DNA of 39,940 nucleotides from Candidatus Woesearchaeota archaeon (GCA_964545215.1 CAZJEV010000001.1:1-39940), one strand, 5' to 3'; counted from the stretch's first letter, positions 2,273 through 35,322 are shown. The notes: generated from the letters alone by a model not told the origin. Numbers and translations are program-made.

Positions 2273-2311
2273 TTGTCATTATTTCTAATGTGTTTTGTAT
2301 GCTCAAAATGC

Positions 2312-2335
2312 AACCGCACCTTGAAAGGCGCGGTT
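2312..2335 (+). terminator. GC-rich hairpin followed by T-run after uS7
   Basis: AACCGCACC-TTGAAA-GGCGCGGTT (8 of 9 pairs) followed by TTTCGT. It lies 40 nt after the uS7 stop and is unusually GC-rich for this sequence. The function is inferred. Confidence 0.3.
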
Positions 2336-2470
2336 TTCGTCAAGCATCTTGACATTAAAGATAGTTTTAAAAAGCTATTTTATTATCAGTTTTTATTCTC
2401 TTACTTATTAACGAAGGAGAATTTATATTTTGTGAAAGGCAGGATTTATTATTAACGGAAGAAAAACAAA

Positions 2471-4660: not shown

Positions 4661-4720
4661 ACTGATTTTCATTATGGCTTACCAAGGATAAGTTTTTAAT
4701 TCTGAAAAACAAGGAAGATT

Positions 4721-5320
4721 ATGCAAAAAGAGACTAAGATTTTGCCTGTCTTTCAGTGGGCATCAACAATTTTACTTATTATTCTGCTTGCTATTTTAAT
4801 CAGCCCTTCAATTGACATCAATATAAACTACTTGATTGCAATCTACAGGCAGGAATCTTTGATGAAAATAATGACGGCGATTTCTTTTTTAGGGTCAAAT
4901 ATATTAATTTTTTTATTTTCATGCATAATTGCATTTTTATTCATCTTCAAAAAAAGGTATAAAGATGCTAATTTTTATCTTCTGGCAGTTATAGGAGCAG
5001 CAGCTCTTGAGTATCTTATCAAAGAAATCGTGAGAAGGCAGAGGCCTGAAAATCTTATTGAAAAAGGTTTTAGTTTTCCAAGCGGGCACGCATCTGTATC
5101 TATGGCTCTTTTTGGGGCGCTTGCACTTATAATTTATCCTAAGAGCAAAAAAGCAGCTTTTAGCATTCTTTTAATCCCGTTACTAATTGGATTCAGCAGA
5201 ATTTATCTTGGAGTTCATTGGTTTAGCGATATAATTGCAGGATATTTGTTTGCAATTATATGGATTTTGTTCTGCTACTTGATTGTTTATAAAATCCTCC
5301 GGAATGATGCCTTTTCCTAA
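4721..5320 (+). CDS. PAP2-family (type 2 phosphatidic acid / undecaprenyl-diphosphate) phosphatase, membrane protein
   Basis: All three PAP2 motifs are present: KEIVRRQRP, PSGH, SRIYLGVHWFSD. Several TM segments. Confidence 0.85.
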   Translation: MQKETKILPVFQWASTILLIILLAILISPSIDININYLIAIYRQESLMKIMTAISFLGSNILIFLFSCIIAFLFIFKKRYKDANFYLLAVIGAAALEYLIKEIVRRQRPENLIEKGFSFPSGHASVSMALFGALALIIYPKSKKAAFSILLIPLLIGFSRIYLGVHWFSDIIAGYLFAIIWILFCYLIVYKILRNDAFS

Positions 5321-5398
5321 ACAACTCTAAAAGAATTAAAATATTGCTTGAGAAATTAAAGAGGCGCAAAATAAAAAATATTAATCTTATAAATTATC

Positions 5399-5650
5399 AT
5401 GAATTTAAGAGAAAATGCGAGAATTCCTGCAAAAATTGAGGAATTAGCTGTTGACCAGGAATTATTTTATGTTAATAATACTCCTGTTCCCGAAGCTGAC
5501 GGGAGCAGAATTATTGGACCATTAACAGAAGAGCAATTAAAATGGAAAAGACAGCAATATGAAAAAATTGTTAAACAAATTGAAAGGGAAGCAAATGATG
5601 TCAGAGAAAAATATCCGTTTATTGTTTATAGTTTAAAGAGGGTTGAATAA
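5399..5650 (+). CDS. Hypothetical 83-aa protein
   Basis: ORF only, with an A/T-rich TATA-like stretch about 29 nt upstream. No motif recognised. Confidence 0.4.
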   Translation: MNLRENARIPAKIEELAVDQELFYVNNTPVPEADGSRIIGPLTEEQLKWKRQQYEKIVKQIEREANDVREKYPFIVYSLKRVE

Positions 5651-5654
5651 TTAT

Positions 5655-6044
5655 TCAAAATTCTTCAAGTTTCAAATCTTTAATTCTTTCAAAATGCTTT
5701 TTATTATTTGTTAAAAAAGGCTCGCCATTTTCTATTGCAATAGATGCTATCATTATATCAGGCAGTTCTATAATCTCTCCATTTGTCTTTAAATCATTAA
5801 ATATTTCTGCAGATTTTTCTGAGGCTGAATAATTAAAATTATATATCTTCAAATTAGCAAGAAATCCCTTAATTGCTTCTATACTGACTTTCGATTGATA
5901 AGGAATTCCTTTAAACAACTCAAAAGAATTTACGGAAGTTGTAGATAACTTCTCTCCGTTTACTCTGATTTTGTCTATTTTTGAAACTACTTCTTTTTTA
6001 TTTCTTAAAAAATCTATAAGCACATCCGAGTCTAAGCATGCCAC
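5655..6044 (-). CDS. vapC: PIN-domain toxin VapC
   Basis: N-terminal CLDSDVLIDFL and C-terminal FLTNNKKHFERI acidic/PIN signature. The GTG start overlaps the upstream antitoxin stop by 1 nt. Confidence 0.8.
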   Translation of the reverse strand: MACLDSDVLIDFLRNKKEVVSKIDKIRVNGEKLSTTSVNSFELFKGIPYQSKVSIEAIKGFLANLKIYNFNYSASEKSAEIFNDLKTNGEIIELPDIMIASIAIENGEPFLTNNKKHFERIKDLKLEEF

Positions 6045-6259
6045 TATTTGAATCTCCTTGATTTAATCTTTCTGTCTTCATATATCTGCTTTTTTATTCT
6101 TTCTCCTTCTTCTTCAGTCAGAATTCCCGCATACTTCATAATATTATCACCTTTCACTTTTTTTGAAAGCTCTATTACAATCTCCGAAAATGACTTATTC
6201 GCCTTCAGTTTTTCAAGCTCTTCGTAAGCCTCATCTGAAATTGAAATTACCTTTGTCAT
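6044..6259 (-). CDS. vapB: VapB-type antitoxin (small, ISISDEAYEELEKLK..SFSEIVIEL pattern)
   Basis: 71 aa, immediately upstream of and overlapping the PIN gene. The sequence pattern is typical of archaeal CopG-like antitoxins. Confidence 0.65.
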   Translation of the reverse strand: MTKVISISDEAYEELEKLKANKSFSEIVIELSKKVKGDNIMKYAGILTEEEGERIKKQIYEDRKIKSRRFK

Positions 6260-21856: not shown

Positions 21857-24772
21857 ATGGTTTACATTAAAAAGATGGTGATGTCTGGATTCAAAAGCTT
21901 TGCCAGAAGGACAGAAATTCTTTTTGACAGGGAAGTTAATGTTATTTTGGGGCCTAATGGAAGTGGAAAGACTAACCTATCGGATGCCATTTGCTTTGTC
22001 CTTGGCAGATTAAGCATAAAATCAATCAGGGCTGCAAAAGCTAAAAACCTGCTTTTCATGGGAAGCAAATACATAAAACCGGTAAAAGAAGCTGTTGTTG
22101 AGTTAGTTTTTGACAATACTGACAGAACCTTTGCAGTAGACAAAGATGAAGTTCATCTAATACGCATAGCAAGAAATAATGGGCAGGGAGTTTATAAAAT
22201 TAATGGCGAGTTAAAAACAAGAACAGAAGTTATTGAAATGCTTGCGCAAGCAGGAATTGATCCATATGGCTTTAATATAATACAGCAGGGGCAAATTCAA
22301 TCAATTGTGATAATGCATTCAGAAGACAGAAGAAAAATAATAGAAGAAGTTGCTGGGATAAGCATTTATGAATCAAGAAAAGAAAAAAGCCTTCATGAAT
22401 TAGAAAAGACAGATGAAAGGCTGAAAGAAATATCCGCAATCTTAAGAGAGAGGAGTAGTTATTTGAGAAATCTGGAAAAAGAAAGAAGCCAGGCCCTGCG
22501 ATTTAAAGAGCTTGAATTAACAGGAAAGAGGTGCAGGGCATCTATTTTGAATAAGAAAATTGAGGAAAAAAAGAAAGAGCTTGCTTCTATAATTAAATCT
22601 ATTCAGGAAAAAAGCGATGAAAAAGACAAGCTGAAAAATGAAGCTGAAAAATTGCAGAATGAAATAGAAAAATTAAATGCTGGAATTTTGGAAATTAATA
22701 AGAAAATTCAGCAGGCTTCTGGATTTGAGCAGGAAAATCTGCGCAATCAGATTGCAAATTTAAAAGCTGAATTGGAAGGATTAAAAGTAAGAAGAGAGAA
22801 TTATGAAAACAGGAGAAGTGAAGTTGAATTAAGAATTAGAGAGATGGAAAGGAGCATTCCTGAACTGGAAAATGAGATAAAGGAATTGAAAAAAGAAAGT
22901 CCTTTAATGGCGAAAAAAGCGCAGGAATTGCGCAAGAAAAAGCAGGAATTTGAGGAAATAGGGGAGCAGAGAAATAATCTCATGTCAGTTAAAAGCGGGC
23001 TGCTTTCCTTAAAAGCTTTGATTCAGGACAGGGAAAAACAGCTTTCTAAAACAAAAGCTAATTCAGATAGGATATTAAAAGATATTGAAAGCTACTCTGC
23101 AAATCTGGAATGTAAAAATGAAGAAGAAGGTAATAATAAAATAAAGAAATTAAAGAGTGAGGTAATTGAGAAAGAAAAATTATTAGGAGAGCTAAGAAAC
23201 AAGGAATTAAAAAATGAAAAAAATATTGGAATTTCTGAAGCTGAGATTGAAAAAGCCAAGTCAATTGAATCAAGGGTAAGGGAGATTGATATATGCCCTT
23301 TATGCCAAAGCAAAATTACACAAGAACATATTAAGCATGTTTTGGATGATGCAGATAAAAAGATTGAGAAAGCGCAGGAAATTTTTAATAAAGCAAGAGA
23401 AGAAATATTAAAGATAAAAGAGCAGGAAAAGAAAATACATGATGAAATTGTTTCAATAAAAAATATTATTTCTATAACTGAAAATGAGATGATAAAGCAC
23501 ACGGCAATTGAAGAAAAAAAGAAGCAATTAAAAACAGAGGTTGAAAATGAGCATGAGCTTGAAAATGAAATAAAGAAAATAAAAGAAAAGCGGAGAGCTT
23601 TTGAAATTAAAGTTCAGGGATTGCCAGGAATAGAGGAAAAATATGACGCAAAAATGCTTGAAATTGAGGAAATTTCATCAAGAACAGAGGAAGATGCTGA
23701 CACAACTATTCTTTACAAGGAAAGAGAGCTGGAAAACATAAGAAATGTAATAAAAAGAGGAAATAAGGATTTGCAGGACATAAATAATGAGATTAAGAAT
23801 CTTTTAATTAATATTGAGAGCAGAGCAAGAGCGTTGGCAGAGAGGGAAAAGCAGGAGCAGGAGTTAAATAGCAGGTTTAAAAAAATGTTTGAAACCAGGG
23901 ATTCTTTTCAGAGAGAAATCCAGGAAAAAAGCCTTGAATTGTCTGAAGTGCAGGGAGAGATAAGACAGTATGATGAGCAGGTTAATTATCTGAAAATTGG
24001 AAAAGCAAAGCTTGATGCGGAAAAAGAAGTTCTTGATATGGAAATGCAGGAATTTTCTGGATTGGAATTAATATCTGGAAGCTTAGACGCTTTGGAAGAA
24101 AGGCTAAGAAAAACGCAGGAAGCATTAATTCAAATAGGAAGCATTAATATGAGGGCTTTGGAAGTTTATGAGCAGGTTAAAAAAGAGTATGATATTGTGC
24201 AGGAAAAGGTAAATATTCTTGAAAGGGAAAAAGCAGAGATCCTGAAAATTATTGAGGAAATTGACAAGAAAAAAACAAGGACTTTTATGAAAACATTTAA
24301 GGCAATTAATGAGCTTTTTTCTCAGAACTTTTTAAAGCTTTCTGCAAAAGGCACTGCATTTTTAGAATTAGAAAATGAAGAGGATATTTTTGCGGGAGGA
24401 GTTAATATAGTTGTTAAATTGGCCAAGGGGAAATATTTTGATGTCACATCCTTATCAGGTGGAGAGCAGACTTTAGTTGCTTTGTCATTGCTTTTTGCAA
24501 TTCAGGAGCATAAACCGTATCACTTTTATATTTTTGATGAAATTGATGCTGCGCTTGACAAGAGAAATTCAGAGAGATTGGCTGCTTTGTTACATAAATA
24601 TATGAAATACGGGCAGTATATTATAATTACGCACAATGACGCTATAATAATGGAGTCTAATATTCTTTATGGAGTAAGCATGCATGATGGCGTTTCTAAG
24701 ATTTTGAGCCTGAAGGTCGGAGATGAAGAAAAGAAAGAAGAAGGTATCACTACTGAAAACAAGGCTGCATAA
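21857..24772 (+). CDS. smc: SMC-family ATPase with central CxxC (Rad50-like zinc hook) instead of a hinge
   Basis: SMC head motifs are present: GFKSFA, GPNGSGKTN, QQGQI, EEVAGISIYESRK, LSGGEQTLVALSLLFAIQ, FYIFDEIDAALD. The middle is continuous coiled-coil-like sequence with CPLC at aa 480-483 of 971 (23294-23305). Confidence 0.9.
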   Translation: MVYIKKMVMSGFKSFARRTEILFDREVNVILGPNGSGKTNLSDAICFVLGRLSIKSIRAAKAKNLLFMGSKYIKPVKEAVVELVFDNTDRTFAVDKDEVHLIRIARNNGQGVYKINGELKTRTEVIEMLAQAGIDPYGFNIIQQGQIQSIVIMHSEDRRKIIEEVAGISIYESRKEKSLHELEKTDERLKEISAILRERSSYLRNLEKERSQALRFKELELTGKRCRASILNKKIEEKKKELASIIKSIQEKSDEKDKLKNEAEKLQNEIEKLNAGILEINKKIQQASGFEQENLRNQIANLKAELEGLKVRRENYENRRSEVELRIREMERSIPELENEIKELKKESPLMAKKAQELRKKKQEFEEIGEQRNNLMSVKSGLLSLKALIQDREKQLSKTKANSDRILKDIESYSANLECKNEEEGNNKIKKLKSEVIEKEKLLGELRNKELKNEKNIGISEAEIEKAKSIESRVREIDICPLCQSKITQEHIKHVLDDADKKIEKAQEIFNKAREEILKIKEQEKKIHDEIVSIKNIISITENEMIKHTAIEEKKKQLKTEVENEHELENEIKKIKEKRRAFEIKVQGLPGIEEKYDAKMLEIEEISSRTEEDADTTILYKERELENIRNVIKRGNKDLQDINNEIKNLLINIESRARALAEREKQEQELNSRFKKMFETRDSFQREIQEKSLELSEVQGEIRQYDEQVNYLKIGKAKLDAEKEVLDMEMQEFSGLELISGSLDALEERLRKTQEALIQIGSINMRALEVYEQVKKEYDIVQEKVNILEREKAEILKIIEEIDKKKTRTFMKTFKAINELFSQNFLKLSAKGTAFLELENEEDIFAGGVNIVVKLAKGKYFDVTSLSGGEQTLVALSLLFAIQEHKPYHFYIFDEIDAALDKRNSERLAALLHKYMKYGQYIIITHNDAIIMESNILYGVSMHDGVSKILSLKVGDEEKKEEGITTENKAA
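24702..24727 (+). repeat. 26-bp direct repeat, copy 1 (inside smc 3' end)
   Basis: TTTTGAGCCTGAAGGTCGGAGATGAA, identical to 25796-25821. Confidence 0.95.
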
Positions 24773-24783
24773 ATTTATTTATC

Positions 24784-25203
24784 CTATTCAGAAGCAATTT
24801 TCTTTAATTTCTCATAAATTTCATCTAGAAACTTTTTTACCTTTTCAGCATATTCCAAGCTTACTTCTTTTCCATAGTACTTTGTTCCATGCCTAATCTC
24901 CCTTAATTTATCAACAAAAATAACTTCGTCTTTAGAAAATTCAAGATTTGATAAATAAGAAACGACTGCCTCATGATTATAACTTTTATATCCTTCTTTG
25001 CTAAGCTTGGCTTCTAAAAGCTCTCTTATAATATCGTAAGATTCTTCAATTATTTGAATTGCTGTTTCCTCATTCATTGGCAGGTATTTTTCCATAATTG
25101 CTTTTCTTTTTCCCGCCCCTTCAATCAAGCTTTTCGCTCTCGCCTCATCTTTTTTCTTTTTCTTTACTAAGCCTTGCTCCAGAAATTCTTCAAAAGTCCT
25201 CAT
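24784..25203 (-). CDS. HEPN-domain protein (toxin of HEPN/MNT pair)
   Basis: 139 aa, helical, with C-terminal ..KLREIRHGTKYYG..SLEYAEKVKKFLDEI.. in the HEPN pattern. ATGA overlap with the upstream MNT gene. Confidence 0.7.
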   Translation of the reverse strand: MRTFEEFLEQGLVKKKKKDEARAKSLIEGAGKRKAIMEKYLPMNEETAIQIIEESYDIIRELLEAKLSKEGYKSYNHEAVVSYLSNLEFSKDEVIFVDKLREIRHGTKYYGKEVSLEYAEKVKKFLDEIYEKLKKIASE

Positions 25204-25739
25204 AATTTTATAGTTCCTTCCAGCACTATGCCATTAACAATATTTTCCTTTAAATTCTTATGCACTGATTTTATATCCTTAAAAAAATGCAGCTGAACCT
25301 CTCTCTTTAATTTATCGCTGTATCTTGCCAATTCATCAAGATGTTTTTCTGAATATCCTATAATTGCTATGTCTATATCGGATTCTTCTGTGTCCTCCCC
25401 ATAAGAATAGCTTCCAAAAATAATTATAGTTGAACCAGGAAATTTATCAGATAAATAATATACGAGTCCGCTTTGATAAAGTGACTTAAGATTATTAATT
25501 CTTTTTAATATGAATGTTTCTTTATTATCCCTATTAAGCCTTATGGATAGAGTAAAATCCTTGCTTATTTTTACTAAATTCTGGCTTTCAAGGCTTCTGG
25601 CAGATTTTATAACTCCGGAAACAGGCCTTTTTATCTTTACCGCTAAGGCTCTGCCTCTAAAAGAAGCTGTTGGATATTTGAATAAAAAATCCAGTATTTC
25701 TTTTTCTGTCTTTGTAAATTTTTTTGTATGTTTGTTCAT
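25200..25739 (-). CDS. Minimal nucleotidyltransferase (MNT) with N-terminal wHTH
   Basis: GSTIIIFGSYSYGEDTEESDIDIAII has the GS-x-G..DxD NTase motif. Start 25739 (MNKH..) is favoured over 25751 because the TATA-like box at 25761-25770 lies 31 nt upstream of it. Confidence 0.8.
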   Translation of the reverse strand: MNKHTKKFTKTEKEILDFLFKYPTASFRGRALAVKIKRPVSGVIKSARSLESQNLVKISKDFTLSIRLNRDNKETFILKRINNLKSLYQSGLVYYLSDKFPGSTIIIFGSYSYGEDTEESDIDIAIIGYSEKHLDELARYSDKLKREVQLHFFKDIKSVHKNLKENIVNGIVLEGTIKL

Positions 25740-25742
25740 ATT

Positions 25743-25760
25743 AATGAACATCTGTTCATT
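25743..25760. promoter_or_regulatory. 18-bp palindrome between TATA-like box and MNT start (candidate operator)
   Basis: AATGAACA-TC-TGTTCATT. Confidence 0.4.
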
Positions 25761-25795
25761 TATTTATAAATGTTTCTATGAAGGATTTTTTGAGT

Positions 25796-25872
25796 TTTTG
25801 AGCCTGAAGGTCGGAGATGAAATGCCAAAACAAGAGGAAGAAGTTCAGGCCGAAGCGAAGCAAGCTAGTTAA
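25796..25872 (+). other. 26-bp direct repeat copy 2 plus orphan in-frame SMC-like C-terminal tail
   Basis: It reads (F)LSLKVGDE-MPKQEEEVQAEAKQAS-stop. The first 8 residues are identical to the SMC sequence at copy 1. No gene body lies upstream; the rest of track ORF 25510-25872 is antisense to the MNT gene. Confidence 0.75.
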
Positions 25873-26100
25873 AACCTATTTTTTTAAACTTAGGATGCTC
25901 TAATTAAACATCCATTTTTGCCTTTTCCATGTTAATCTTATGTACATCAGGATGTACTTATTTACAAATCTTGTGGTCATTGCAATGTACATATCTTTTA
26001 ACTTTTAGATTCTCTGAAAGAATTGGAAAAGACTTAAGACAATCGGCAAGATAAAACTGCGAATTATATATAATTTTTAAGTAGTTACATTTAGAAAAAC

Positions 26101-26131: not shown

Positions 26132-26269
26132 ATGAAGAAGAAACTTAGTATAAGCATTGAAGAGAAAACTATAGATAGTTCAGATTGCTTTATAGTAAAA
26201 GGTCTGTTTAGAAATAAAAGTCATCTTATTGAATTTGCACTAAATAAATTTTTAAAGAGAATAAAATGA
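26132..26269 (+). CDS. 45-aa RHH/CopG-like protein (below the ORF-track size cutoff)
   Basis: MKKKLSISIEEKTIDSSDCFIVKGLFRNKSHLIEFALNKFLKRIK has a beta-strand plus two helices with the ..S.LIE.AL..FL.. pattern. Its TGA overlaps the next ATG (ATGA). Confidence 0.55.
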   Translation: MKKKLSISIEEKTIDSSDCFIVKGLFRNKSHLIEFALNKFLKRIK

Positions 26270-28512
26270 GAGAAGCTAAAGAAAAATTTGATGGTTTAAT
26301 AGAAAGAATAAAATCCGGAAACCCAGTAAAATTCGGAGAAGCAGAAAGAGTATTTGCTGAAGCCTTTTTGTCACATTTCTTGAAGAATCTTGAAAGAAAC
26401 AGGCAGAGAGTGATAGATGCTATAAAGAAACAAGCAAGAGAAAGAGATGACGCATATTATGATGAAGGCGAAGAGCGGGAAGAATATGATGTTTCCAATG
26501 AAGATATTGCAAGGCATGAAATAGAAGGGATAAGAACTGTTGCTAGTGCTTTAGGTGTAAGGCCAAAAATATCACAACTAAATAAATATACAAGTTCTGC
26601 AATAAAATTAGGAGATTGGAATCTTTTAAAAGATATTCTCGGATTGTCTGAAGAAGGTAAGTTAGAAAGAGGCGCTTTAGAGGAAGTCGCTGTAAGCCAG
26701 CTTACTTACGGAACAAGAAGATCTTACAAAGAACTAAAAGAACAATTCCCAGACCTAGAATTAAGCCAGCAAAAATTATCCGATGAAGAATCTAAATTAA
26801 TTTATAAAGAGATTGTTGAGCAGCTCTATATGCTTGATAGAGATTTAAGAAATTCACAAGGGTTAGATAATATATCAAATATTGTTTCCAGAAGAGGCTT
26901 GAAGGCCATAATAGAATCAGGCTTAACAATTCCTGTTTTAGCATCTATTGAAGCTTTAAGCCCTTCTGTAGAGACTTCTACTCGTTTGTCTGATTTTGCT
27001 AAAAACGCAGACTATCAAGAAGGAAGAGAGTTGCAAAGAAGGTTCTATCATGGCCTTTCTTCATTGCAAGATTTAGAAAATGGTAAGGAAATCCTTGAGC
27101 ATGCGGCCTCTATTTCAAATAATGCAAGAAATTTAGCAAAAGTGTTGTCAGCAATATCCTTAGTAAGTAGAAGTTCAGATTTTCAATATCATTTTTCCTT
27201 AACTTCAGTAGAAAAAACTCTAAGAAACCTTAAGCTGCAGCTTGTAGATGGAGGCCTAAGAAAAATAGGCCTCACAGATCAAAATCTGGAAAAGTATTTA
27301 GAAAGAGTGGATAAAGATGAGAGATTTAGGAAAGTAGGAGACATTCTGACAACTCTTTCCAGCTATTCTCATTACCAAAATCCTAAACAGATAGGGTTGA
27401 TTAGAGAAATAATAGAGGCAGAATTGGAAGATAGATTTCCAGAATGGAGATATACTCATAATCTTGCATCAGAGCAATTAGCTGTTCTTGAAGATAGAAT
27501 TTCTGCATGGAAGGAAAATAGAAGAGTCACAAGATTGGTTGGAGAGCTAGATGCTTTAAAATCTCATGTAGATGCGGTTAGAGATTTATTTCCAAAGTTA
27601 CAGGAAAGTTATGGGCAGCATTACAAAATCACTCTAGATAGAGAAGAAGTAAAAGACTTGGAGAATAAAATCCGGAAAAATGAAGAGGCTTTAAGGCAAG
27701 GATTGCCTAAAAGTGAAGCCCGAGACTTAGGATACGAAACAGGATTGCTAAGGGAAAGAATTGCTTATACTAAATTACTAAAGGGGATTAAGGAGTTATC
27801 TACTGAAAGTTATGCCCAAATTTTAGCGATTGCACAAAATATATCTAAAAGAAGATCAAGAAATCCTCTTTTTGAAACTGCGCTATGGATAAAAGATACT
27901 TTAGACCAGCCAGTATATAGGGAAGCAAGAAGGATAATTGTAGCAGAGACGGATGACTTAGAAGATATGCTAAGAATGGGCGAGATACCTGTACCACACT
28001 GCCAGAATTGGAAGAATGATAATAATTTGAATAGGTCTTTATTGAGCTTTCCGGCTGATGCAAATAAGAAATTATACCACTTCGTAAATGGCGATGGCAA
28101 ACCATTTGGAATGAGTTTAATTAGATTAGTAGGCAATGGAAATATGCCTACATTATTAGTAGAAAACATTTACTCTAATGAATGGAGCGAGGACTATGGC
28201 ACTGCTTTTATCGGAAGTTTAGCAGATAAGGCCCTAGCAATTTATGAAGAAGCTGGAAAACCAGTAGCTATTGCAAGCCCCATACACTCTGGACATGAAG
28301 CTCATGGAAGAAAGAATATTCAAGTTTTAAACGCATTGAAGAGATTTGCTCAAAAATATAAAATTGAATTATATGAAGAAGATATTAGCATTAAAGCCGC
28401 TAGAAGTAAAAATACACACGAATATTGGGATTGCGGCTTCGGATTAGTAGAAAGCGGAAATGGAATTGAGCTTCCAGTAAAATATGTTCTATTTGGAGGT
28501 TCTAATGGATAA
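26266..28512 (+). CDS. 748-aa protein of unknown function (helical N-terminal region, Cys/His-bearing C-terminal domain)
   Basis: Long uninterrupted ORF with normal composition and no antisense alternative of comparable length. Motifs VPHCQNW (Cys579, 28000-28002), HSGHEAHG and YWDCGFG. No family recognised. Confidence 0.75.
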   Translation: MREAKEKFDGLIERIKSGNPVKFGEAERVFAEAFLSHFLKNLERNRQRVIDAIKKQARERDDAYYDEGEEREEYDVSNEDIARHEIEGIRTVASALGVRPKISQLNKYTSSAIKLGDWNLLKDILGLSEEGKLERGALEEVAVSQLTYGTRRSYKELKEQFPDLELSQQKLSDEESKLIYKEIVEQLYMLDRDLRNSQGLDNISNIVSRRGLKAIIESGLTIPVLASIEALSPSVETSTRLSDFAKNADYQEGRELQRRFYHGLSSLQDLENGKEILEHAASISNNARNLAKVLSAISLVSRSSDFQYHFSLTSVEKTLRNLKLQLVDGGLRKIGLTDQNLEKYLERVDKDERFRKVGDILTTLSSYSHYQNPKQIGLIREIIEAELEDRFPEWRYTHNLASEQLAVLEDRISAWKENRRVTRLVGELDALKSHVDAVRDLFPKLQESYGQHYKITLDREEVKDLENKIRKNEEALRQGLPKSEARDLGYETGLLRERIAYTKLLKGIKELSTESYAQILAIAQNISKRRSRNPLFETALWIKDTLDQPVYREARRIIVAETDDLEDMLRMGEIPVPHCQNWKNDNNLNRSLLSFPADANKKLYHFVNGDGKPFGMSLIRLVGNGNMPTLLVENIYSNEWSEDYGTAFIGSLADKALAIYEEAGKPVAIASPIHSGHEAHGRKNIQVLNALKRFAQKYKIELYEEDISIKAARSKNTHEYWDCGFGLVESGNGIELPVKYVLFGGSNG

Positions 28513-29428
28513 AGCATTTGTCTATCATGGCAAAGTTGAAAGCCTTGCAGAACAAGTTGAAGAATATAGAGATAGATTAAATAAAAGATACTTAGAAATA
28601 TTTGGCGAAAAGAATTATCAAAAGCTAGCTAGAGCTTCTCAGACTATTTTAACTCCTGAGAGCTTTATTAATACAAAGGATGAATTGGAGAAAATATCAG
28701 GGACCAAATTCACAGGCAAATCGCAGTGCAGTAAACTTATACTCATGGTAAGTCCAGATTTTGCTCTTAATCCAGATAGAACTTTTAAGCAAAAAAAGGT
28801 AAGAATTGCCCCTGGATTTTATGTTTCAGACGAGAGTTTCAAATATTCTGGAGCATCCGCATACTCTGAAAAGATTATTGCAACCTATGTTCATGAATTT
28901 AATCATTTTGCCTGGTTAGCCTTGCAAAAAACTCCTTTTTATGTCACAGAATCAACTTTATCCCGTGAAATTGGTTCTACAAGAACAGACGAAGACATTC
29001 GCAATCTTATTGAAAGATTAGAAATAGAAACAGCAAGGCCTTTAGAGCAAAAAAGAGAGATTTTAACAACAAGTCTTACCGCCTACATGATGCATGAGGG
29101 ATTTGAGCAAGCAAATAGGATTTTAGATAATTCTGTTTTAAGCAGTATAGGAATTAATGCTTCTATTCCTTATAGAAGACAAAAAAAGAAGTTTGCTCTA
29201 GGATATTCTTCTGCATTAAGGATGGCATTTGTTTTTCCTTTAGAAGGAGATTATTATTGGAATTTGTCTGATAAGCAAGCAATTAATAATTTCTTAGATT
29301 GGGAGGATTATCTCAATGTAATAATAAATGCACCGTTTATTCAACAAATTGTTAATTCAGTAAAATCTTTAGAAATTCAATTATTGCCCTTGACTGTATT
29401 AAGAAAAGAAATAGAAACTCAACAATGA
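28505..29428 (+). CDS. Cytoplasmic HExxH protein (putative metallopeptidase) of unknown family
   Basis: HEFNH at 28892-28906, with no signal peptide or TM. ATG 28505 overlaps the upstream stop (28510-28512) by 8 nt. ATG 28484 is the alternative start. Confidence 0.7.
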   Translation: MDKAFVYHGKVESLAEQVEEYRDRLNKRYLEIFGEKNYQKLARASQTILTPESFINTKDELEKISGTKFTGKSQCSKLILMVSPDFALNPDRTFKQKKVRIAPGFYVSDESFKYSGASAYSEKIIATYVHEFNHFAWLALQKTPFYVTESTLSREIGSTRTDEDIRNLIERLEIETARPLEQKREILTTSLTAYMMHEGFEQANRILDNSVLSSIGINASIPYRRQKKKFALGYSSALRMAFVFPLEGDYYWNLSDKQAINNFLDWEDYLNVIINAPFIQQIVNSVKSLEIQLLPLTVLRKEIETQQ

Positions 29429-29838
29429 ACCAAGAAAAATATTTAGAGCAATTAATGCAAAAAAGTGATTATTGTAAGTGTCAAGATTTAGCAGAGCTTT
29501 TTGAAAAAAGAAAAGCTGCCAGAAAATTGGAAATCAAATGTAAGTTCTTTAAAAGAAATGCAGACCTTAAAAATCCTCAGCAGGGAAATCAGGCTTTTCT
29601 TAGAGACTATCAAATAGAAGTAGGTAATTTAAAAAGCGCTGTGCAAGATTACTATAAATCGCTTTATCAACATGCAGCTGAGAAGAAAGTCTATTTTGCT
29701 TTGCATGATGCCATAAAAGAAAGAGTGGTTAAGTTTTTACCCTTAGAGAAGACACAGAGACTCTTAAGAAACTCTAATCCTATTATTTCTATCCATTGCC
29801 ATACCTGCAAACAGCAGATTGATGTTGCCCATCGCTAA
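29425..29838 (+). CDS. 137-aa protein with N-terminal CxC and C-terminal CxxC
   Basis: ATGA overlap with the upstream gene. CKC near the N-terminus and HCHTC near the C-terminus form a possible Zn site. Confidence 0.6.
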   Translation: MNQEKYLEQLMQKSDYCKCQDLAELFEKRKAARKLEIKCKFFKRNADLKNPQQGNQAFLRDYQIEVGNLKSAVQDYYKSLYQHAAEKKVYFALHDAIKERVVKFLPLEKTQRLLRNSNPIISIHCHTCKQQIDVAHR

Positions 29839-30662: not shown

Positions 30663-31253
30663 ATGGGAGCTTTAGCTGAATATGCCAGAAAAAGGAATTT
30701 TGAAAAAACCAAAGAGCCATCTGGAAAAAAGAGAATTAAATTAATAGACCTTAGTAAAGACAAGGCAAAGCCTACGAAAAATCCTAAATTTGTTGTGCAA
30801 ATGCATGATGCTTCTCACTTGCATCATGATTTCCGCCTTGAAATTTCTGGAGTTCTAGTGTCATGGGCGGTCCCTAAAGAGCTTCCGAATCCGGGAGAAA
30901 AAAGACTGGCAGTCATGACAGAAGATCATCCTTTAGATTATGGAAGCTTTGAAGGCATAATTCCTGAAGGCAACTACGGAGCTGGAACTGTAATGATATG
31001 GGATTATGGAAATTATGAGAATTATAATTATGGCAAAGGAAAATTAATAAATATGAAAGAATCTTTAAAAAATGGAAAGATTCATGTTATTCTTAATGGA
31101 AAAAAGCTTAAGGGAGATTACATTCTAGTAAAGTTTAAAGGACAGGAAAAAAATTGGCTAATAATGAGACCAAGGGCTGCAAAAAAAGAAAAAAGAGATG
31201 ATAAGTCTGCCTTAACAGGAAGGACATTGAAGCAGATTGAAAAAGAAGGATGA
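30663..31253 (+). CDS. LigD-type 3'-phosphoesterase (PE) domain protein, stand-alone
   Basis: FVVQMHDASHLHHDFRLEISGVLVSWAVPKELP..EDHPLDY..GAGTVMIWDYG..LKGDYILVK has the canonical LigD-PE pattern. Confidence 0.9.
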   Translation: MGALAEYARKRNFEKTKEPSGKKRIKLIDLSKDKAKPTKNPKFVVQMHDASHLHHDFRLEISGVLVSWAVPKELPNPGEKRLAVMTEDHPLDYGSFEGIIPEGNYGAGTVMIWDYGNYENYNYGKGKLINMKESLKNGKIHVILNGKKLKGDYILVKFKGQEKNWLIMRPRAAKKEKRDDKSALTGRTLKQIEKEG

Positions 31254-31310
31254 TTGTACTTTAGTTCTAAAAAGAGAAAGATTTATATATGAACTTATAT
31301 AAATATTAAT

Positions 31311-31583
31311 ATGAGTATATATAAAGAAAAAGAAATAATACATTATCCTAGTTTAAGAACAATGTTAATGGTAGAAAAAACTTTGAGAGAGGCTGATACT
31401 ATGATAGACAGAGAAGAGCTAAAAAGAAGATTACCCACTAAGATTATGCATCAAACGCTAAATTTAATATTGAGATATTTTGAAGAAAGGGGGATGATAA
31501 TCGACAGCCATAAAGGCATTTTATGGATCTATAATCCTAGTCCTAAATTGAAAAAAGCAATTGAAAATGCTAGGGAGATATAA
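31311..31583 (+). CDS. 90-aa putative antitoxin / wHTH-like protein
   Basis: It lies directly upstream of, and overlaps by 1 nt, a RelE-like gene. TTTATATA lies 29 nt upstream. Confidence 0.5.
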   Translation: MSIYKEKEIIHYPSLRTMLMVEKTLREADTMIDREELKRRLPTKIMHQTLNLILRYFEERGMIIDSHKGILWIYNPSPKLKKAIENAREI

Positions 31584-31957
31584 TGTTTCAAGGAAAAGAG
31601 GTGGTTGTAAAACTTTCTGAAGAGGCTGACCAAGTTTATCAAGAGTTGAATAAAATCGTTGGCGAAGAAAAGCTAAAAGGAATTGATAGTTCTTTTCATC
31701 AGACTTTATTAAGAAGCATTAATAGAGTTAGGGACTTGTTAAAACAAAATCCTTTTGCTGGCGATCAGGTAAAGAAGAAGCAAATTCCTCTAAAGTATAT
31801 TCAAAAATTTGATGTAGATAATGCTTGGAGAATTGAATTAGCTGACAGATGGAAATTAGTTTATACTATTACTGGAAATCAAATTGAAATAATCACATTT
31901 ATTATGGATATTTTTGATCATAAGGATTATGATAAGGTCTTTGGATATAAACATTAA
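31583..31957 (+). CDS. RelE/YoeB-like toxin
   Basis: ..LKQNPFAGDQV..NAWRIELADRWKLVYTITGNQIEIITFIMDIFDHKDYDKVFG fits the RelE-superfamily C-terminal pattern (W/YR..L...YRLVY.., H..Y). Confidence 0.65.
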   Translation: MFQGKEVVVKLSEEADQVYQELNKIVGEEKLKGIDSSFHQTLLRSINRVRDLLKQNPFAGDQVKKKQIPLKYIQKFDVDNAWRIELADRWKLVYTITGNQIEIITFIMDIFDHKDYDKVFGYKH

Positions 31958-31993
31958 GAAGTTTATTTAAATATAAAATAATTGGTAAGCAAA

Positions 31994-32887
31994 ATGAGCA
32001 AAGAAGAGATTATTAAAGTGGATGGAAAGGAAATAAAGCTGAGTAATATAGATAAAGTGCTTTTTCCTAAATCTGGGATTACCAAAGGCCAGGTAATTAA
32101 ATATTATTATAAAATATCTAAAAAAATGCTGCCTTATTTGAAAGACAGGCCTATTGCAATGCAGAGATTTCCAGACGGGATAAATAAAGAAGGCTTTTAT
32201 CAGAAAGATATTTCTGAATATTTTCCGGATTGGGTTGGGCATTTTGACATTCCGAAAAAAGAACATGGAAAGACAAAATATGTAATAATTGAAAAGACTG
32301 CTGACCTTGTTTATTTAGCAACGCAGGCAGTAATAACTGTTCATACTTTTCTTTCAAGAAAAGATAAATTGAATTATCATGATAAAATTGTGTTTGACTT
32401 AGACCCTAGCAAAGAAAATGATTTTGAAAATGTGAAAAAAGCTGCTTTAAAATTAAAAAAATTTCTTGAAAAACTAGGAATAAAGCCATTAGTAATGGCA
32501 ACTGGCTCCAGGGGGCTTCATATTATCATAATAATAAAAAGAAATGCCAATTATAAAGAAGTCAAGGAATTCATAGAAAAAATTGCGGAAAAATTTGCAA
32601 AGGAAAACAGAGACCTGATAAGCACTGAATTTATCAAGAAAAAAAGAGAAGGAAAGATTTTCCTGGATTACAGGAGAAATTATGAATCACAACATGCCGT
32701 TGCTCCTTATTCTATTAGAGCCGGAGAAGGAGCGCCAGTTGCAGTGCCTCTTTCCTGGAAAGAAGTTAATAAGAGCTTAAAACCAGATAAATATAATATA
32801 AAAAATATTTTTAAGAGGAAAAATAATCCGTGGAAAAACATGGGAAAAAACAAGGTAAATATTAAAAATATAATGGCTTCATTTTGA
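31994..32887 (+). CDS. LigD-type polymerase/primase (AEP PolDom), stand-alone
   Basis: KLSNIDKVLFPKSGITKGQVIKYYYKISKKMLPYLKDRPIAMQRFPDGI, FDLDPS and TGSRGLHIII. ATG 31994 has a TATA-like box 28 nt upstream; the track start 31982 is a TTG. Confidence 0.9.
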   Translation: MSKEEIIKVDGKEIKLSNIDKVLFPKSGITKGQVIKYYYKISKKMLPYLKDRPIAMQRFPDGINKEGFYQKDISEYFPDWVGHFDIPKKEHGKTKYVIIEKTADLVYLATQAVITVHTFLSRKDKLNYHDKIVFDLDPSKENDFENVKKAALKLKKFLEKLGIKPLVMATGSRGLHIIIIIKRNANYKEVKEFIEKIAEKFAKENRDLISTEFIKKKREGKIFLDYRRNYESQHAVAPYSIRAGEGAPVAVPLSWKEVNKSLKPDKYNIKNIFKRKNNPWKNMGKNKVNIKNIMASF

Positions 32888-33047: not shown

Positions 33048-34331
33048 TTACACTTCAAGAAGCCACTTGCTAACAGGTTTTACCTTTATGGACTTGCCAT
33101 TTATTTTCTCTTCTTTTTCCTCATGCATAGTAAGCAATAAAAGATTATTGCACTTAAACTCATCACTAGCTTTAATTAGTACTTTTAATTCTCTGTCCCT
33201 AGTCATAAAGTTTTCAGCATCATAACAGACTTGAATGAGCTGGATAACTTTCTTTCCCTTCTTTACAACAAAATCAACTTCTTCCTTAAGAGAATTTTGA
33301 TAATAAGCTATGTCCTTATTTCTGCGCACAAGTTCCAGGAAAACAAGATTCTCAAGCAATCTTCCTTTATCATCAATACCATTCATAGTTAAAAGTCCAT
33401 TATCAATAAAATATACCTTAGGCAAAGATTGCTCACTTTTTTTGTAAGATAAACTATACTTCCTAAGAAGAAAAACAAAGAAGGCATCATTTAATAGGTC
33501 AACATATTTATATAGTAAGTTCTTGCTTATCTTGATTCCCTGAGATTTAATAAAATTATAGAATTTATGTATTGAGAATTCTTTGGCTGTTAATAGCGCG
33601 CTTATAAGCGTCTTTAATGCTTTGGTATTTCTTATCTTTCCTCGTTCAATTACATCTTTGTATATAGCAGTATCATAAATATCTTTAATTATTTTATCCT
33701 TCTCTACGCTGTATATTGCTGTTTCTGGATATCCTCCAGAGACAAGATATTCTTCAAATAATTTGCTAAGAATTGATTTTTCGCTTGAAGAATAAAATTT
33801 CTTTATCTTGAAATCCTTTGCTGATAAGTATTCTCTAAAAGAAAATGGATAAATATGATAAGAAATATTTCTTCCACGCATGCTAGTAGCTATCTCCTTG
33901 CTTAATAATTTTGAACTTGAGCCTGATAAAAATACAGCTATTTCCTCATCTAAACAACTTCTGACAAAATGCTCCCATCCTGCAACATTCTGTATTTCGT
34001 CTAGAAAGAGCCATACTTTCTCTCCTTTATTTTCAGGGTGCAATTCATAATATGTTTCAAGCATCTTTACTAAGTCATTAGAAGTAATGTCTCCTAGATC
34101 TGCTCTTTCAAAATTAATATAAAGAACCTTGTCAATCCCATATTTTTCTCTTATTTGATTTATCAAAAAGAACATTTCATATGTCTTTCCAGCCCGTCTT
34201 GGCCCAATAATGGAGACCGCCCGCTTCATGTCTTCTGCTAGCTTTATTACTTGCTCTCTTGGAATTATTAAAGGCATTTTCTTTTCTTGAAAATCCTTGA
34301 TTATTTCTGCCCATTTTTCCTTAGTTATCAT
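33048..34331 (-). CDS. AAA+ ATPase of the COG1373 type (AAA domain plus DUF4143)
   Basis: Walker A IIGPRRAGKT and Walker B LFLDEIQNV. The C-terminal region follows the DUF4143-type pattern common in archaea. Confidence 0.8.
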   Translation of the reverse strand: MITKEKWAEIIKDFQEKKMPLIIPREQVIKLAEDMKRAVSIIGPRRAGKTYEMFFLINQIREKYGIDKVLYINFERADLGDITSNDLVKMLETYYELHPENKGEKVWLFLDEIQNVAGWEHFVRSCLDEEIAVFLSGSSSKLLSKEIATSMRGRNISYHIYPFSFREYLSAKDFKIKKFYSSSEKSILSKLFEEYLVSGGYPETAIYSVEKDKIIKDIYDTAIYKDVIERGKIRNTKALKTLISALLTAKEFSIHKFYNFIKSQGIKISKNLLYKYVDLLNDAFFVFLLRKYSLSYKKSEQSLPKVYFIDNGLLTMNGIDDKGRLLENLVFLELVRRNKDIAYYQNSLKEEVDFVVKKGKKVIQLIQVCYDAENFMTRDRELKVLIKASDEFKCNNLLLLTMHEEKEEKINGKSIKVKPVSKWLLEV

Positions 34332-34684: not shown

Positions 34685-34936
34685 ACAGACACAACTATTT
34701 CGGTAAGAATAGACAAAAGCCTAAGAGAGAAAATGAAAGCATTGGATTATATTAATTGGAGTGCTATTTTAAGAAAAGCAATAATTAGGCAGATAGAAGA
34801 AAATAGGCAGAAAAACAGGGAAAAAATGAGAAAAGCTTCAGAATCAATGGACAAAATAAGGGCGTCGGGAGTCTTTAATGAAGGCAAAACAGGAACAGAA
34901 ATTATAAGGGAATGGAGAGACAAGCGAAGATTTTAG
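34682..34936 (+). CDS. vapB: VapB-type RHH antitoxin
   Basis: TTISVRIDKSLREKMKAL..INWSAILRKAI has an RHH pattern and overlaps the downstream PIN gene. Confidence 0.65.
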   Translation: MTDTTISVRIDKSLREKMKALDYINWSAILRKAIIRQIEENRQKNREKMRKASESMDKIRASGVFNEGKTGTEIIREWRDKRRF

Positions 34937-35322
34937 ATGCTTCTGTAATAGTAAAATGGTTTGCTGAAGAGATTTCAACTGATAAAGCCCTAAAATTAAA
35001 AGAGGAATATCTATCTGAAAAGATTGATATTATTATTCCTGAATTTGCTTTTCTAGAGGTTTTAAATTCATTAAGATATAAGAAAAATAATGAACGAGGC
35101 CTATTAAAGATAAGCAAAGACTTATTCAATATAGATTTCAAAGTAGAAAAGATTAATGAAATAATACTTAATAAAGCTGTCAGCATTTCAATGCAGTATA
35201 ACATAACAATTTATGATTCGGTTTACATAGCGCTTTCTCAGATTTATGGCTGTCCTTTAATAACTGCAGATAAGGAATTATATAATATTCCAAATATAAT
35301 TCCTTTGGAAAAATATGATTAA
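34912..35322 (+). CDS. vapC: PIN-domain toxin VapC
   Basis: ILDASVIVKWF.., ..TIYDSVYIAL.., ..LITADKELY with the PIN acidic residues. Confidence 0.8.
   Translation: MERQAKILDASVIVKWFAEEISTDKALKLKEEYLSEKIDIIIPEFAFLEVLNSLRYKKNNERGLLKISKDLFNIDFKVEKINEIILNKAVSISMQYNITIYDSVYIALSQIYGCPLITADKELYNIPNIIPLEKYD

Follow-up and report, generated by a model that had tools for sequence, protein, structure and literature searches.

A toxin–antitoxin-like cassette probably inserted by attachment-like recombination at the 3' end of an archaeal smc gene

Modules that pair an MNT protein with a HEPN protein are abundant and mobile, and insertions between close relatives have been noted without an insertion footprint or a mechanism (PMC2701414); their mobility has been inferred from patchy distribution (PMC2701414). 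The type VII toxin–antitoxin pair HepT/MntA works by a described AMPylation mechanism (PMC7641770). In bacterial integrative elements, integration at gene 3' ends, attachment (att) repeats, replacement of the gene end and accretion have been described, as have integrase-less remnants called cis-mobilizable elements (CIMEs) (PMC5704250). The locus described here brings these subjects together. It lies in a stretch of 39,940 nucleotides from an assembly labeled Candidatus Woesearchaeota archaeon (GCA_964545215.1 CAZJEV010000001.1:1-39940), the whole of which is called the window, with positions counted from its first nucleotide. An MNT–HEPN cassette sits there at the 3' end of smc, a gene of chromosome condensation, between two copies of a short piece of that gene. 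A further parallel comes from the mobile open reading frames (ORFs) of organelles, which insert at the 3' end of a host gene, bring a replacement C terminus and leave the displaced end downstream as a pseudo-fragment. Those ORFs encode a homing endonuclease that drives the insertion; unlike them, the window cassette shows no evident DNA nuclease.

The locus is best read as a real, discrete insertion of ~1.09 kb that probably arose by att-like recombination at the smc 3' end, through a Campbell-type crossover in an identical core. The features on which this reading turns are as follows.

21857..24772, plus strand: smc, 971 aa, intact (PF02463 SMC_N, E=1e-49)
24684..24727, plus strand: repeat copy 1 (attL-like), in smc; an 18-nt block (24684-24701) and the core (24702-24727); encodes HDGVSKILSLKVGDE
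24728..24772, plus strand: tail 1, 14 codons (EKKEEGITTENKAA) and a stop; inside the repeat-to-repeat unit; the present working smc tail
24785..25776, minus strand: conserved cassette unit, 992 bp, by blastn against the cassette loci L082-L087
25778..25821, plus strand: repeat copy 2 (attR-like); a decayed 18-nt block (25778-25795) and the core (25796-25821); starts 1 nt past the edge of cassette homology
25822..25885, plus strand: tail 2, 16 codons (MPKQEEEVQAEAKQAS), a stop at 25870-25872 and a run of seven T (T7) at 25879-25885

The core is a perfect 26-mer, TTTTGAGCCTGAAGGTCGGAGATGAA, with plus-strand copies at 24702-24727 and 25796-25821, just where the first-pass annotation had placed them. 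No third copy was found in the window with up to three mismatches allowed. The 26-mer had no match in 100 dinucleotide-preserving shuffles, and the pair is the sole significant local direct repeat of the 39.9-kb window. The annotation had described a repeat of 26 bp; the perfect block stands at that length, and the repeat as a whole proves to be a mosaic of 44 nt that reaches further 5' (24684-24727 against 25778-25821, 86% identical, ungapped). All six mismatches fall within the first 18 nt, and the remaining 26 nt are perfect. The 18-nt block nonetheless keeps 12 of 18 matches in a fixed register (P ~7e-4), and in the smc frame it reads YEGFFEF in copy 2 versus HDGVSKI in copy 1. The two tails also read as had been claimed. 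The smc gene ends ...LSLKVGDE followed by tail 1, with its stop at 24770-24772, and the frame past copy 2 runs ...LSLKVGDE into tail 2. The unit from repeat to repeat measures 1094 bp and contains, as the annotation stated, only the minus-strand MNT and HEPN genes with their promoter and palindrome.

The 26-mer is poorly conserved among relatives, with at least six mismatches in all 44 smc genes compared and a mean of 11. The identity of the two window copies therefore reflects shared origin and not constraint. A metagenome contig collection contained no match to it and no second cassette bearing it. An earlier concern that the 26-mer might be a common dispersed repeat unrelated to smc is thus not borne out by the searches of the window and of those contigs, and none of 80 related smc loci carries both copies without the cassette. 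Those 80 loci also lack the cassette at this site and any duplicated smc end, which agrees with the proposal that the insertion was made at the 3' end of smc. A recurrent att site at the smc end was likewise not found in these 80 relatives. One of the loci, L032, has a distant MNT–HEPN pair (34% and 28% identity) immediately past smc, but it is oppositely oriented and no repeat accompanies it.

The position of the insertion within SMC is informative. An alignment of the C-terminal region of 120 relatives is conserved up to ...GVSK[IV]LSLK[VIL] and then gives way to tails of 0 to >100 residues. Because the tails past ...LSLK[VIL] vary freely, the insertion site is a permissive boundary, between the codons of the conserved SMC head domain and those of the variable C-terminal tail.

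The locus is present in groundwater metagenome runs of one study, at a depth of 3-6x and as contigs only. Logan contigs are k=31-based, and two independently built ones from run X1 match the window without mismatch and cover one junction each. The first (23934-24814) runs from smc through copy 1 and tail 1 into the first part of the cassette, and the second (25569-25936) leads from the cassette through copy 2 and tail 2 into the DNA beyond. Since independent contigs cross both junctions mismatch-free, the repeat structure is real and not an assembly artefact. An account in which the assembly is chimeric at the shared 26-mer, or in which the duplication is a chance or pre-existing one unrelated to the cassette, is very improbable. 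It could appeal to the low-coverage metagenome source (~5x) and to one related cassette (L141 723-2015) whose repeat is part of a pre-existing tandem array with a 123-nt unit, made of a TATA box and a 28-codon hydrophobic mini-ORF; the copy number of that array differs between runs, with a "goes back 123" joint in X10. In the window, however, the X1 contigs cross both copies with distinct flanks and no mismatch, the junction of the cassette with copy 2 lies outside the repeat, chance matches were zero, and repeats are strongly associated with cassettes across the family, as described below.

The cassette itself consists of two small genes and a promoter.

24784..25203, minus strand: HEPN-fold gene, 139 aa; presumed toxin partner; convergent with smc
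25200..25739, minus strand: winged helix-turn-helix (wHTH)-MNT gene; putative antitoxin and autorepressor; ORF open as far as 25751 (183 aa)
25744..25776, minus strand: promoter, with operator palindrome ATGAACAtcTGTTCAT at 25744-25759 and TATA box and transcription factor B recognition element (BRE) at ~25760-25776; outer edge of the conserved cassette

The real start of the MNT gene is the ATG at 25739, judged by homologues and cassette promoters, and not the one at 25751. The MNT protein matches PF01909 (E=6e-12) and PF18765 (E=4e-10), and reaches 36.5 bits against the NCBIfam MntA model NF047752, under the cut-off of 60. The residues of its GS...DxD core (G113, S114, D125 and D127) are invariant in 33 homologues. 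An N-terminal extension of ~85 aa precedes this domain, and homologues show HTH_11, MarR or HTH_24 matches there. The 139-aa partner has zero matches in Pfam, NCBIfam and PDB sequences. Its AlphaFold2 model has a predicted local distance difference test score (pLDDT) of 96.9, and the best Foldseek match to the model is the HEPN protein AF_0298 (2hsb; template modeling (TM) scores 0.71/0.77), with further matches to the sacsin HEPN domain (3o10), TT1696 (1ufb) and the HepT toxins of MntA–HepT pairs (7ae6/5yep). The original identification of the pair as HEPN and MNT thus holds by sequence for the MNT protein and by predicted fold only for its partner. The partner family shares the motif R101-[EK]-[IV]-R104-[H22/N9/I1]-G-T-K-Y109-Y110. 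It lacks the canonical Rx4-6H motif, there being no His 4-6 residues past either Arg, and the invariant Tyr109 occupies the place where the canonical His would be.

The cassette is a wHTH-MNT/HEPN-fold pair of type VII toxin–antitoxin-like architecture. It resembles HepT/MntA in having two small genes that overlap, with MNT preceding HEPN, a GS...DxD core, the HEPN four-helix fold and a patchy, mobile distribution. It differs in the ~85-aa winged-helix extension of its MNT protein and the conserved operator palindrome, and in a HEPN partner that has neither a Pfam or NCBIfam match nor Rx4-6H. By analogy with known type VII systems (PMC7641770), the pair would be expected to have toxin–antitoxin activity. 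The winged-helix part of the MNT protein presumably serves autoregulation. L082 and L084 have the palindrome (TGAACA-NN-TGTTCA) and a TTTATAAA box at matching positions, and L086 has a degenerate form of the palindrome (TGAGCA-CT-TGTTAA). The two-gene pairing is conserved: the MNT and HEPN genes overlap by 4 nt in the window and in L082-L087, and 67 of the 84 loci examined contain an ORF of the size expected for the partner.

Several observations show that this pair travels as a unit. Its nearest homologues (~70% identity for MNT, 84% for the HEPN partner) occur as cassette pairs in unrelated genomic contexts in L082, L084 and L086. DNA identity to other cassettes is 72-75% and is confined to the interval from 24785-24793 through 25775/25776, which is bounded on one side by the HEPN stop codon and on the other by a point a few bases upstream of the TATA box. 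With blastn homology ending at 24785 and 25776, the earlier suggestion that the toxin–antitoxin pair is a discrete cassette is well founded. The segment at 24728-24783, comprising tail 1 and 11 nt, lies between copy 1 and the cassette edge and has no counterpart in other cassettes. Contigs of ~0.9-1.1 kb from X5 and X6 (depth 5-8) have identity to the cassette only at 25145-25164 and 25759-25777, and are probably from a related cassette in another community member.

The arrangement of the tails suggests which of them belonged to smc before the insertion. Tail 1 directly meets the convergent HEPN gene, and tail 2 is followed by the T7 run; oligo-T acts as a terminator in archaeal transcription. 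On the best reading, tail 2 with its T-run is the ancestral smc end and tail 1 came with the insert. This is because tail 2 lies outside the repeat-to-repeat unit in whichever phase the unit is drawn and because the T7 run follows it. The idea that one tail is ancestral and the other supplied by the insert thereby stands, and topology and the T-run add that tail 2 is the ancestral one. Homology does not help here. The tails show no significant similarity to each other by shuffling, nothing beyond composition, and compared with the tails of 117 SMC relatives neither did better than shuffled queries. As neither resembles the relatives' tails, their assignment depends on topology and the T-run. 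Extended homology 5' of both repeats was also not significant by shuffling. The probable terminator of smc, the T7 run, now stands 1.1 kb off, past tail 2. Just 11 nt separate the stop codons of smc and the HEPN gene (24770-24786), which lie on opposite strands, and transcription of smc may extend into the cassette in antisense.

The mosaic form of the repeat recurs at related loci. In 11 loci the longest perfect run was compared with uniform scatter of the mismatches, given their number. Individual results were as follows.

Window: alignment 44 nt, longest perfect run 26 nt, P 0.012
L084: alignment 122 nt, longest perfect run 39 nt, P 0.019
L154: alignment 141 nt, longest perfect run 42 nt, P 0.017
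L157: alignment 42 nt, longest perfect run 32 nt, P 0.027
L141: alignment 100 nt, longest perfect run 69 nt, P 0.036
L090, ATPase insert: alignment 206 nt, longest perfect run 68 nt, P <5e-5

Combined over the 11 loci, the clustering of mismatches has P ~1e-7. Six of the 11 alignments have their perfect block at the same end, and wherever a convergent host gene could be identified (the window, L084 and the L090 insert) that end is the gene's 3'-most one, abutting the point where homology stops. Attachment sites of integrative elements that target tRNA genes have this form, with an identity block bounded by the gene end and a diverged block 5' of it. Clustered mismatches are what an att-like identity block predicts and are not what an evenly decaying simple target duplication predicts.

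This bears on the main rival account, in which the cassette was captured at a staggered break, for example by end joining and fill-in. The repeats would then be a true target duplication of 26-44 nt, tail 1 an accidental read-through, and the mosaic a product of later decay and gene conversion. This seems unlikely, even though several facts suit it. Repeats across the family are host sequence, differ from locus to locus and range over 26-140 nt; the cassettes have no conserved termini beyond promoter and stop codon; homologues of LigD phosphoesterase and primase-polymerase are encoded in the window (30663-32887); the 18-nt block contains internal duplications typical of untidy repair; and a read-through of 14 codons is, by our estimate, about what random AT-rich sequence would give. 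Uniform decay would not be expected to cluster the mismatches, however, and we know of no prokaryotic mechanism that yields duplications so long and variable. In L084 the two copies share the position of the stop codon. At L090 the polymorphic unit carries, beside the perfect block, a ~75% identical copy of the host-gene segment, and the stop codon keeps its position in either allele, as it would not with a foreign insert.

Similar flanking repeats recur in the cassette family. For 53 cassettes, including the window and L082, L084 and L086, the 500 nt upstream were compared with the 500 nt downstream, and a direct repeat was counted at a score of at least 36. Twelve of the 53 have a significant repeat. 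The 99th percentile of a cross-locus null is 33, the same flanks in inverted orientation reach a maximum of 32, and random 1-kb pseudo-cassettes in the same loci reach 36 in 4 of 396 cases (Fisher P = 3e-9). One locus is represented by two near-identical copies (L122 and L124); counted once, it leaves 11 of 52 (Fisher P 2e-8). The repeats measure 26-140 nt, are 77-96% identical and have a different sequence at every locus, with those of the window, L082, L084, L109, L154, L157 and L162 being unrelated host sequences.

The repeats also have a consistent placement. The downstream copy begins 0-18 nt past the stop codon in 7 of 11 loci and lies 0-121 nt downstream of the cassette in 10 of 11. From the end of the upstream copy to the start codon there are 26-80 nt in 8 of 11, and this copy lies 26-178 nt upstream of the cassette in 9 of 11. 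An extra small ORF lies within the bracket only in L122 and L090, and no integrase or other recognizable element gene was seen inside the brackets of family loci. No conserved terminal sequence was found among the cassettes apart from the promoter and stop codon. At three loci (the window, L084 and L082) a called host gene is convergent with HEPN and its 3' end forms the downstream copy; the upstream copy, beside the cassette promoter, is a pseudo-fragment. L082 has two different tails past the repeat (QLRNRNS...HKK versus RK), as the window does, and in L084 both copies retain a stop codon at the same place. A count of synonymous versus non-synonymous changes in L084 (9 vs ~8) does not separate the models. 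In L162 and L109 the repeat overlaps an unconfirmed convergent ORF, that of L109 reading as non-coding, and L157 is ambiguous. L141 and a second cassette of L168 depart from this, their repeat covering a promoter and the start of a gene, not its end. The L168 cassette (2297-3534) is a different MNT/HepT pair (PF01909 and PF01934) with a 71-nt direct repeat of ~90% identity, so bracketing is not limited to one cassette family.

At one related locus, L090, an insertion of this kind is found both filled and empty. Three copies of the 3' end of one gene, encoding a 445-aa membrane protein, lie within 2600-6230 (at ~2690, 4241 and 6073), and they separate an MNT–HEPN cassette, accompanied by a 90-aa ORF, from a gene for a 415-aa ATPase. 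Between the two copies on either side of the ATPase gene, identity is 99% for 78 nt and ~75% thereafter, with a 12-nt indel. The middle copy is itself a mosaic, sharing a 12-nt deletion with the oldest copy and having an end like the functional one. In run X29 a 731-nt contig (depth 8.3, compared with ~3-4 for the contigs of the insert) joins 4240 to 6073. This joint drops exactly the 1832-nt repeat-to-repeat unit, including its diverged block, with 68 nt assignable to either flank. The filled allele is the dominant one in other runs, where contigs end at the repeat. The protein has 445 aa in either allele, and only its last residue changes (KKRKT vs KKRKN). Because the unit includes a diverged gene segment and the alleles are of equal length, an insert that brings its own gene end explains the locus, and a random insert does not. 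At L141 the reads revealed the pre-existing 123-nt array instead of an empty site, and at L109 there was an ambiguous variant contig; the collected loci show no empty site for other repeat-bracketed cassettes.

The family invites comparison with integrative elements that target gene 3' ends and with CIMEs. Bracketing direct repeats with one copy in the smc 3' end, a perfect block at the 3'-most end of the target gene where that gene could be identified, a gene end supplied by the insert with the old end displaced, serial accretion (L090) and, for the ATPase insert of L090, gain or loss exactly at the repeat are shared. Unlike those elements, the window insert is of 1.1 kb and a single operon, with no integrase found in it or in the window, and close cassettes differ in both repeat and target, so that there is no single att specificity. 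The absence of an integrase or transposase from the insert had been stated in the first-pass annotation, and it was upheld by an ORF and Pfam scan: the 41 window ORFs of at least 100 aa that were scanned (every likely gene included) hold no recombinase Pfam domain, and neither they nor the insert holds a transposase.

From this comparison comes the proposal that a larger, integrase-bearing element once integrated at the smc 3' end and lost everything except the toxin–antitoxin pair, leaving attL and attR behind. Integration at gene 3' ends, att repeats, a replaced end, accretion and integrase-less remnants are all described for such elements (PMC5704250), and the serial copies in L090 are accretion-like. 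In the bracketed loci, though, the repeats hug a two-gene cassette. Related cassettes also use wholly different repeats, unlike one integrase family with one target; the scanned window ORFs have no integrase domain; and the cassette family is nearly absent from viral contigs, where only weak partial matches were found. With no integrase or recognizable element gene inside any bracket, a CIME-like origin becomes less likely, and we regard it as improbable.

Two other types of mobile unit are worth setting beside these cassettes. Integron gene cassettes, including those with toxin–antitoxin genes, are also single-operon units of ~1 kb that lack a recombinase of their own and accumulate serially. 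The present cassettes differ from them in showing no conserved attC-like sequence past the stop codon (no dedicated attC structure search was made) and no integron integrase or attI, in having repeats that are host coding sequence and in having a promoter of their own. The target-site duplications of transposons are likewise target-derived direct repeats that differ at every site. They have a fixed length of 2-15 nt, in contrast to the variable 26-140 nt and the mosaic with a diverged block found here, and no transposase or shared conserved ends were found in these cassettes (terminal inverted repeats as such were not searched for). In the literature searched there is no description of recombinase-less, 1-kb, single-operon DPANN cassettes that are repeatedly bracketed by long, host-specific mosaic repeats, often at convergent gene ends.

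Against att-like recombination at the smc 3' end several points have to be weighed. A core of 26 nt is short for homologous recombination, and a recombinase domain is absent from the scanned ORFs. Neither an empty-site junction (24727 to 25822) nor a circle junction was found in X1-X6, where a depth of 3-6x is too shallow for this to count as absence. There is no strain-level relative to show the site before insertion, the closest SMC being 67% identical. The decayed 18-nt block is closer to no relative's smc than to the host's; an origin of this block in the smc of another lineage was considered and rejected, as every relative is closer to the functional copy than to the block. The block also contains small internal duplications (TTTTTGAG twice, and TGAAGG), which could instead mark a messy repair junction. 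About three quarters of the family cassettes have no flanking repeat. Where repeats are present they differ between cassette lineages, so a separate event must create each attachment fragment. Finally, the empty allele of L090, known from one assembled contig, could also have arisen through a later pop-out deletion.

On the reading of att-like recombination, the events most likely ran as follows. A fragment derived from smc, made up of the decayed 18-nt block, the core and tail 1 in that order, would travel beside the cassette, presumably on a circular intermediate. A reciprocal crossover within the 26-nt core, between smc and this fragment, would leave copy 1 as host smc through the core followed by the insert-borne tail 1, and copy 2 as the insert-borne, decayed smc-like block followed by the core, the original tail 2 and the T-run. 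SMC would stay functional, since only its dispensable tail is swapped. The 5' block of the carried fragment would never be needed and so could decay. The reaction would be catalyzed by host homologous recombination or by a recombinase supplied in trans, as is assumed because the cassette encodes none. Recombination between the copies would in turn free a circle with the cassette and one hybrid repeat, and this circle could enter any genome with a matching smc end. In residence, the cassette would persist through its own autoregulated promoter and, presumably, addiction. We infer the circular intermediate, the position of the crossover and the enzyme. A broader generalization can be put forward only tentatively. 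The wHTH-MNT/HEPN cassettes of DPANN archaea, and perhaps AAA_14-type ATPases too, would possibly be recombinase-less mobile cassettes with a portable, short and decaying attachment copy of a host gene's 3' end, capable of popping out as circles, re-entering naive genomes at the homologous gene, providing it with a new end and building serial arrays at gene ends.

The host and the neighborhood of smc complete the picture. The window is chromosomal, carrying genes for S12, S7, EF-2, EF-1alpha, a Toprim protein and RNase HII. Relatives of the SMC protein are annotated as Pacearchaeota, Nanoarchaeota or Woesearchaeota, and the host is a Pacearchaeota/Nanoarchaeota-like DPANN archaeon. Upstream synteny is kept in the 80 related smc loci, where the conserved genes encode an Ig-like membrane protein and a protein of AP-endonuclease fold. 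The downstream window genes, three consecutive ones at 26266-29838 (748, 314 and 137 aa), have no Pfam or NCBIfam match and are beside smc in none of the 80, and the whole stretch downstream of smc looks lineage-specific and variable. Neither the 748-aa protein nor the MNT protein has an exact match in public assemblies.

Further downstream, a gene at 30663-31253 has a LigD 3'-phosphoesterase domain (E=2e-40), with homologues near smc in L031 and L043, and another at 31982-32887 has a LigD primase-polymerase domain (E=1e-82); these are parts of end-joining repair, encoded separately, in a reduced DPANN genome. There is also an ATPase gene of the AAA_14/DUF4143 type (33048-34331, minus strand), which resembles the repeat-bracketed L090 insert, followed by a PIN-domain (VapC-like) gene at 34912-35322 (plus strand). 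No direct repeats flanking either of these two genes were detectable.

Six SMC relatives (P0055, P0083, P0096, P0108, P0109 and P0118) have 1484-1575 aa and contain intein and LAGLIDADG domains (PF14890, PF14528), so smc is also an intein host in the Pacearchaeota-like group. The AP-endonuclease-fold and Ig-like genes, which precede smc in the window, lie downstream of smc, on the opposite strand, in L017, L024, L025, L030, L031 and many others as compared with L001-L016, which points to recurrent inversion around smc. At the other end of the window, an N6/N4 DNA methylase ORF (245-826; PF01555, covering profile positions 43-221 from residue 1) lies beside the S12/S7/EF-2 cluster, and its start may be miscalled.

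Toxin–antitoxin pairs, and MNT–HEPN pairs especially, are among the most mobile archaeal genes and are rarely found with mobility genes. Taken alone, the window offers a modest change: smc is intact, has a new short tail and has its former terminator displaced. It is the family-wide pattern, rather than the single locus, that carries the interest. The window and about a fifth of the cassette family preserve an insertion footprint made of host-derived, att-like mosaic repeats, often where a convergent host gene ends, and a swapped tail, and this footprint includes filled and empty alleles in nature at one related locus, L090. If the pattern holds, the spread of chromosomal toxin–antitoxin modules becomes testable, there would be an explanation for a class of small gene-end hot spots in the reduced genomes of DPANN archaea, and variable C-terminal tails such as those of SMC may sometimes be by-products of cassette traffic. 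Recombinase-less mobile cassettes would, if true, provide a concrete mechanism for the long-noted and unexplained mobility of chromosomal toxin–antitoxin genes.

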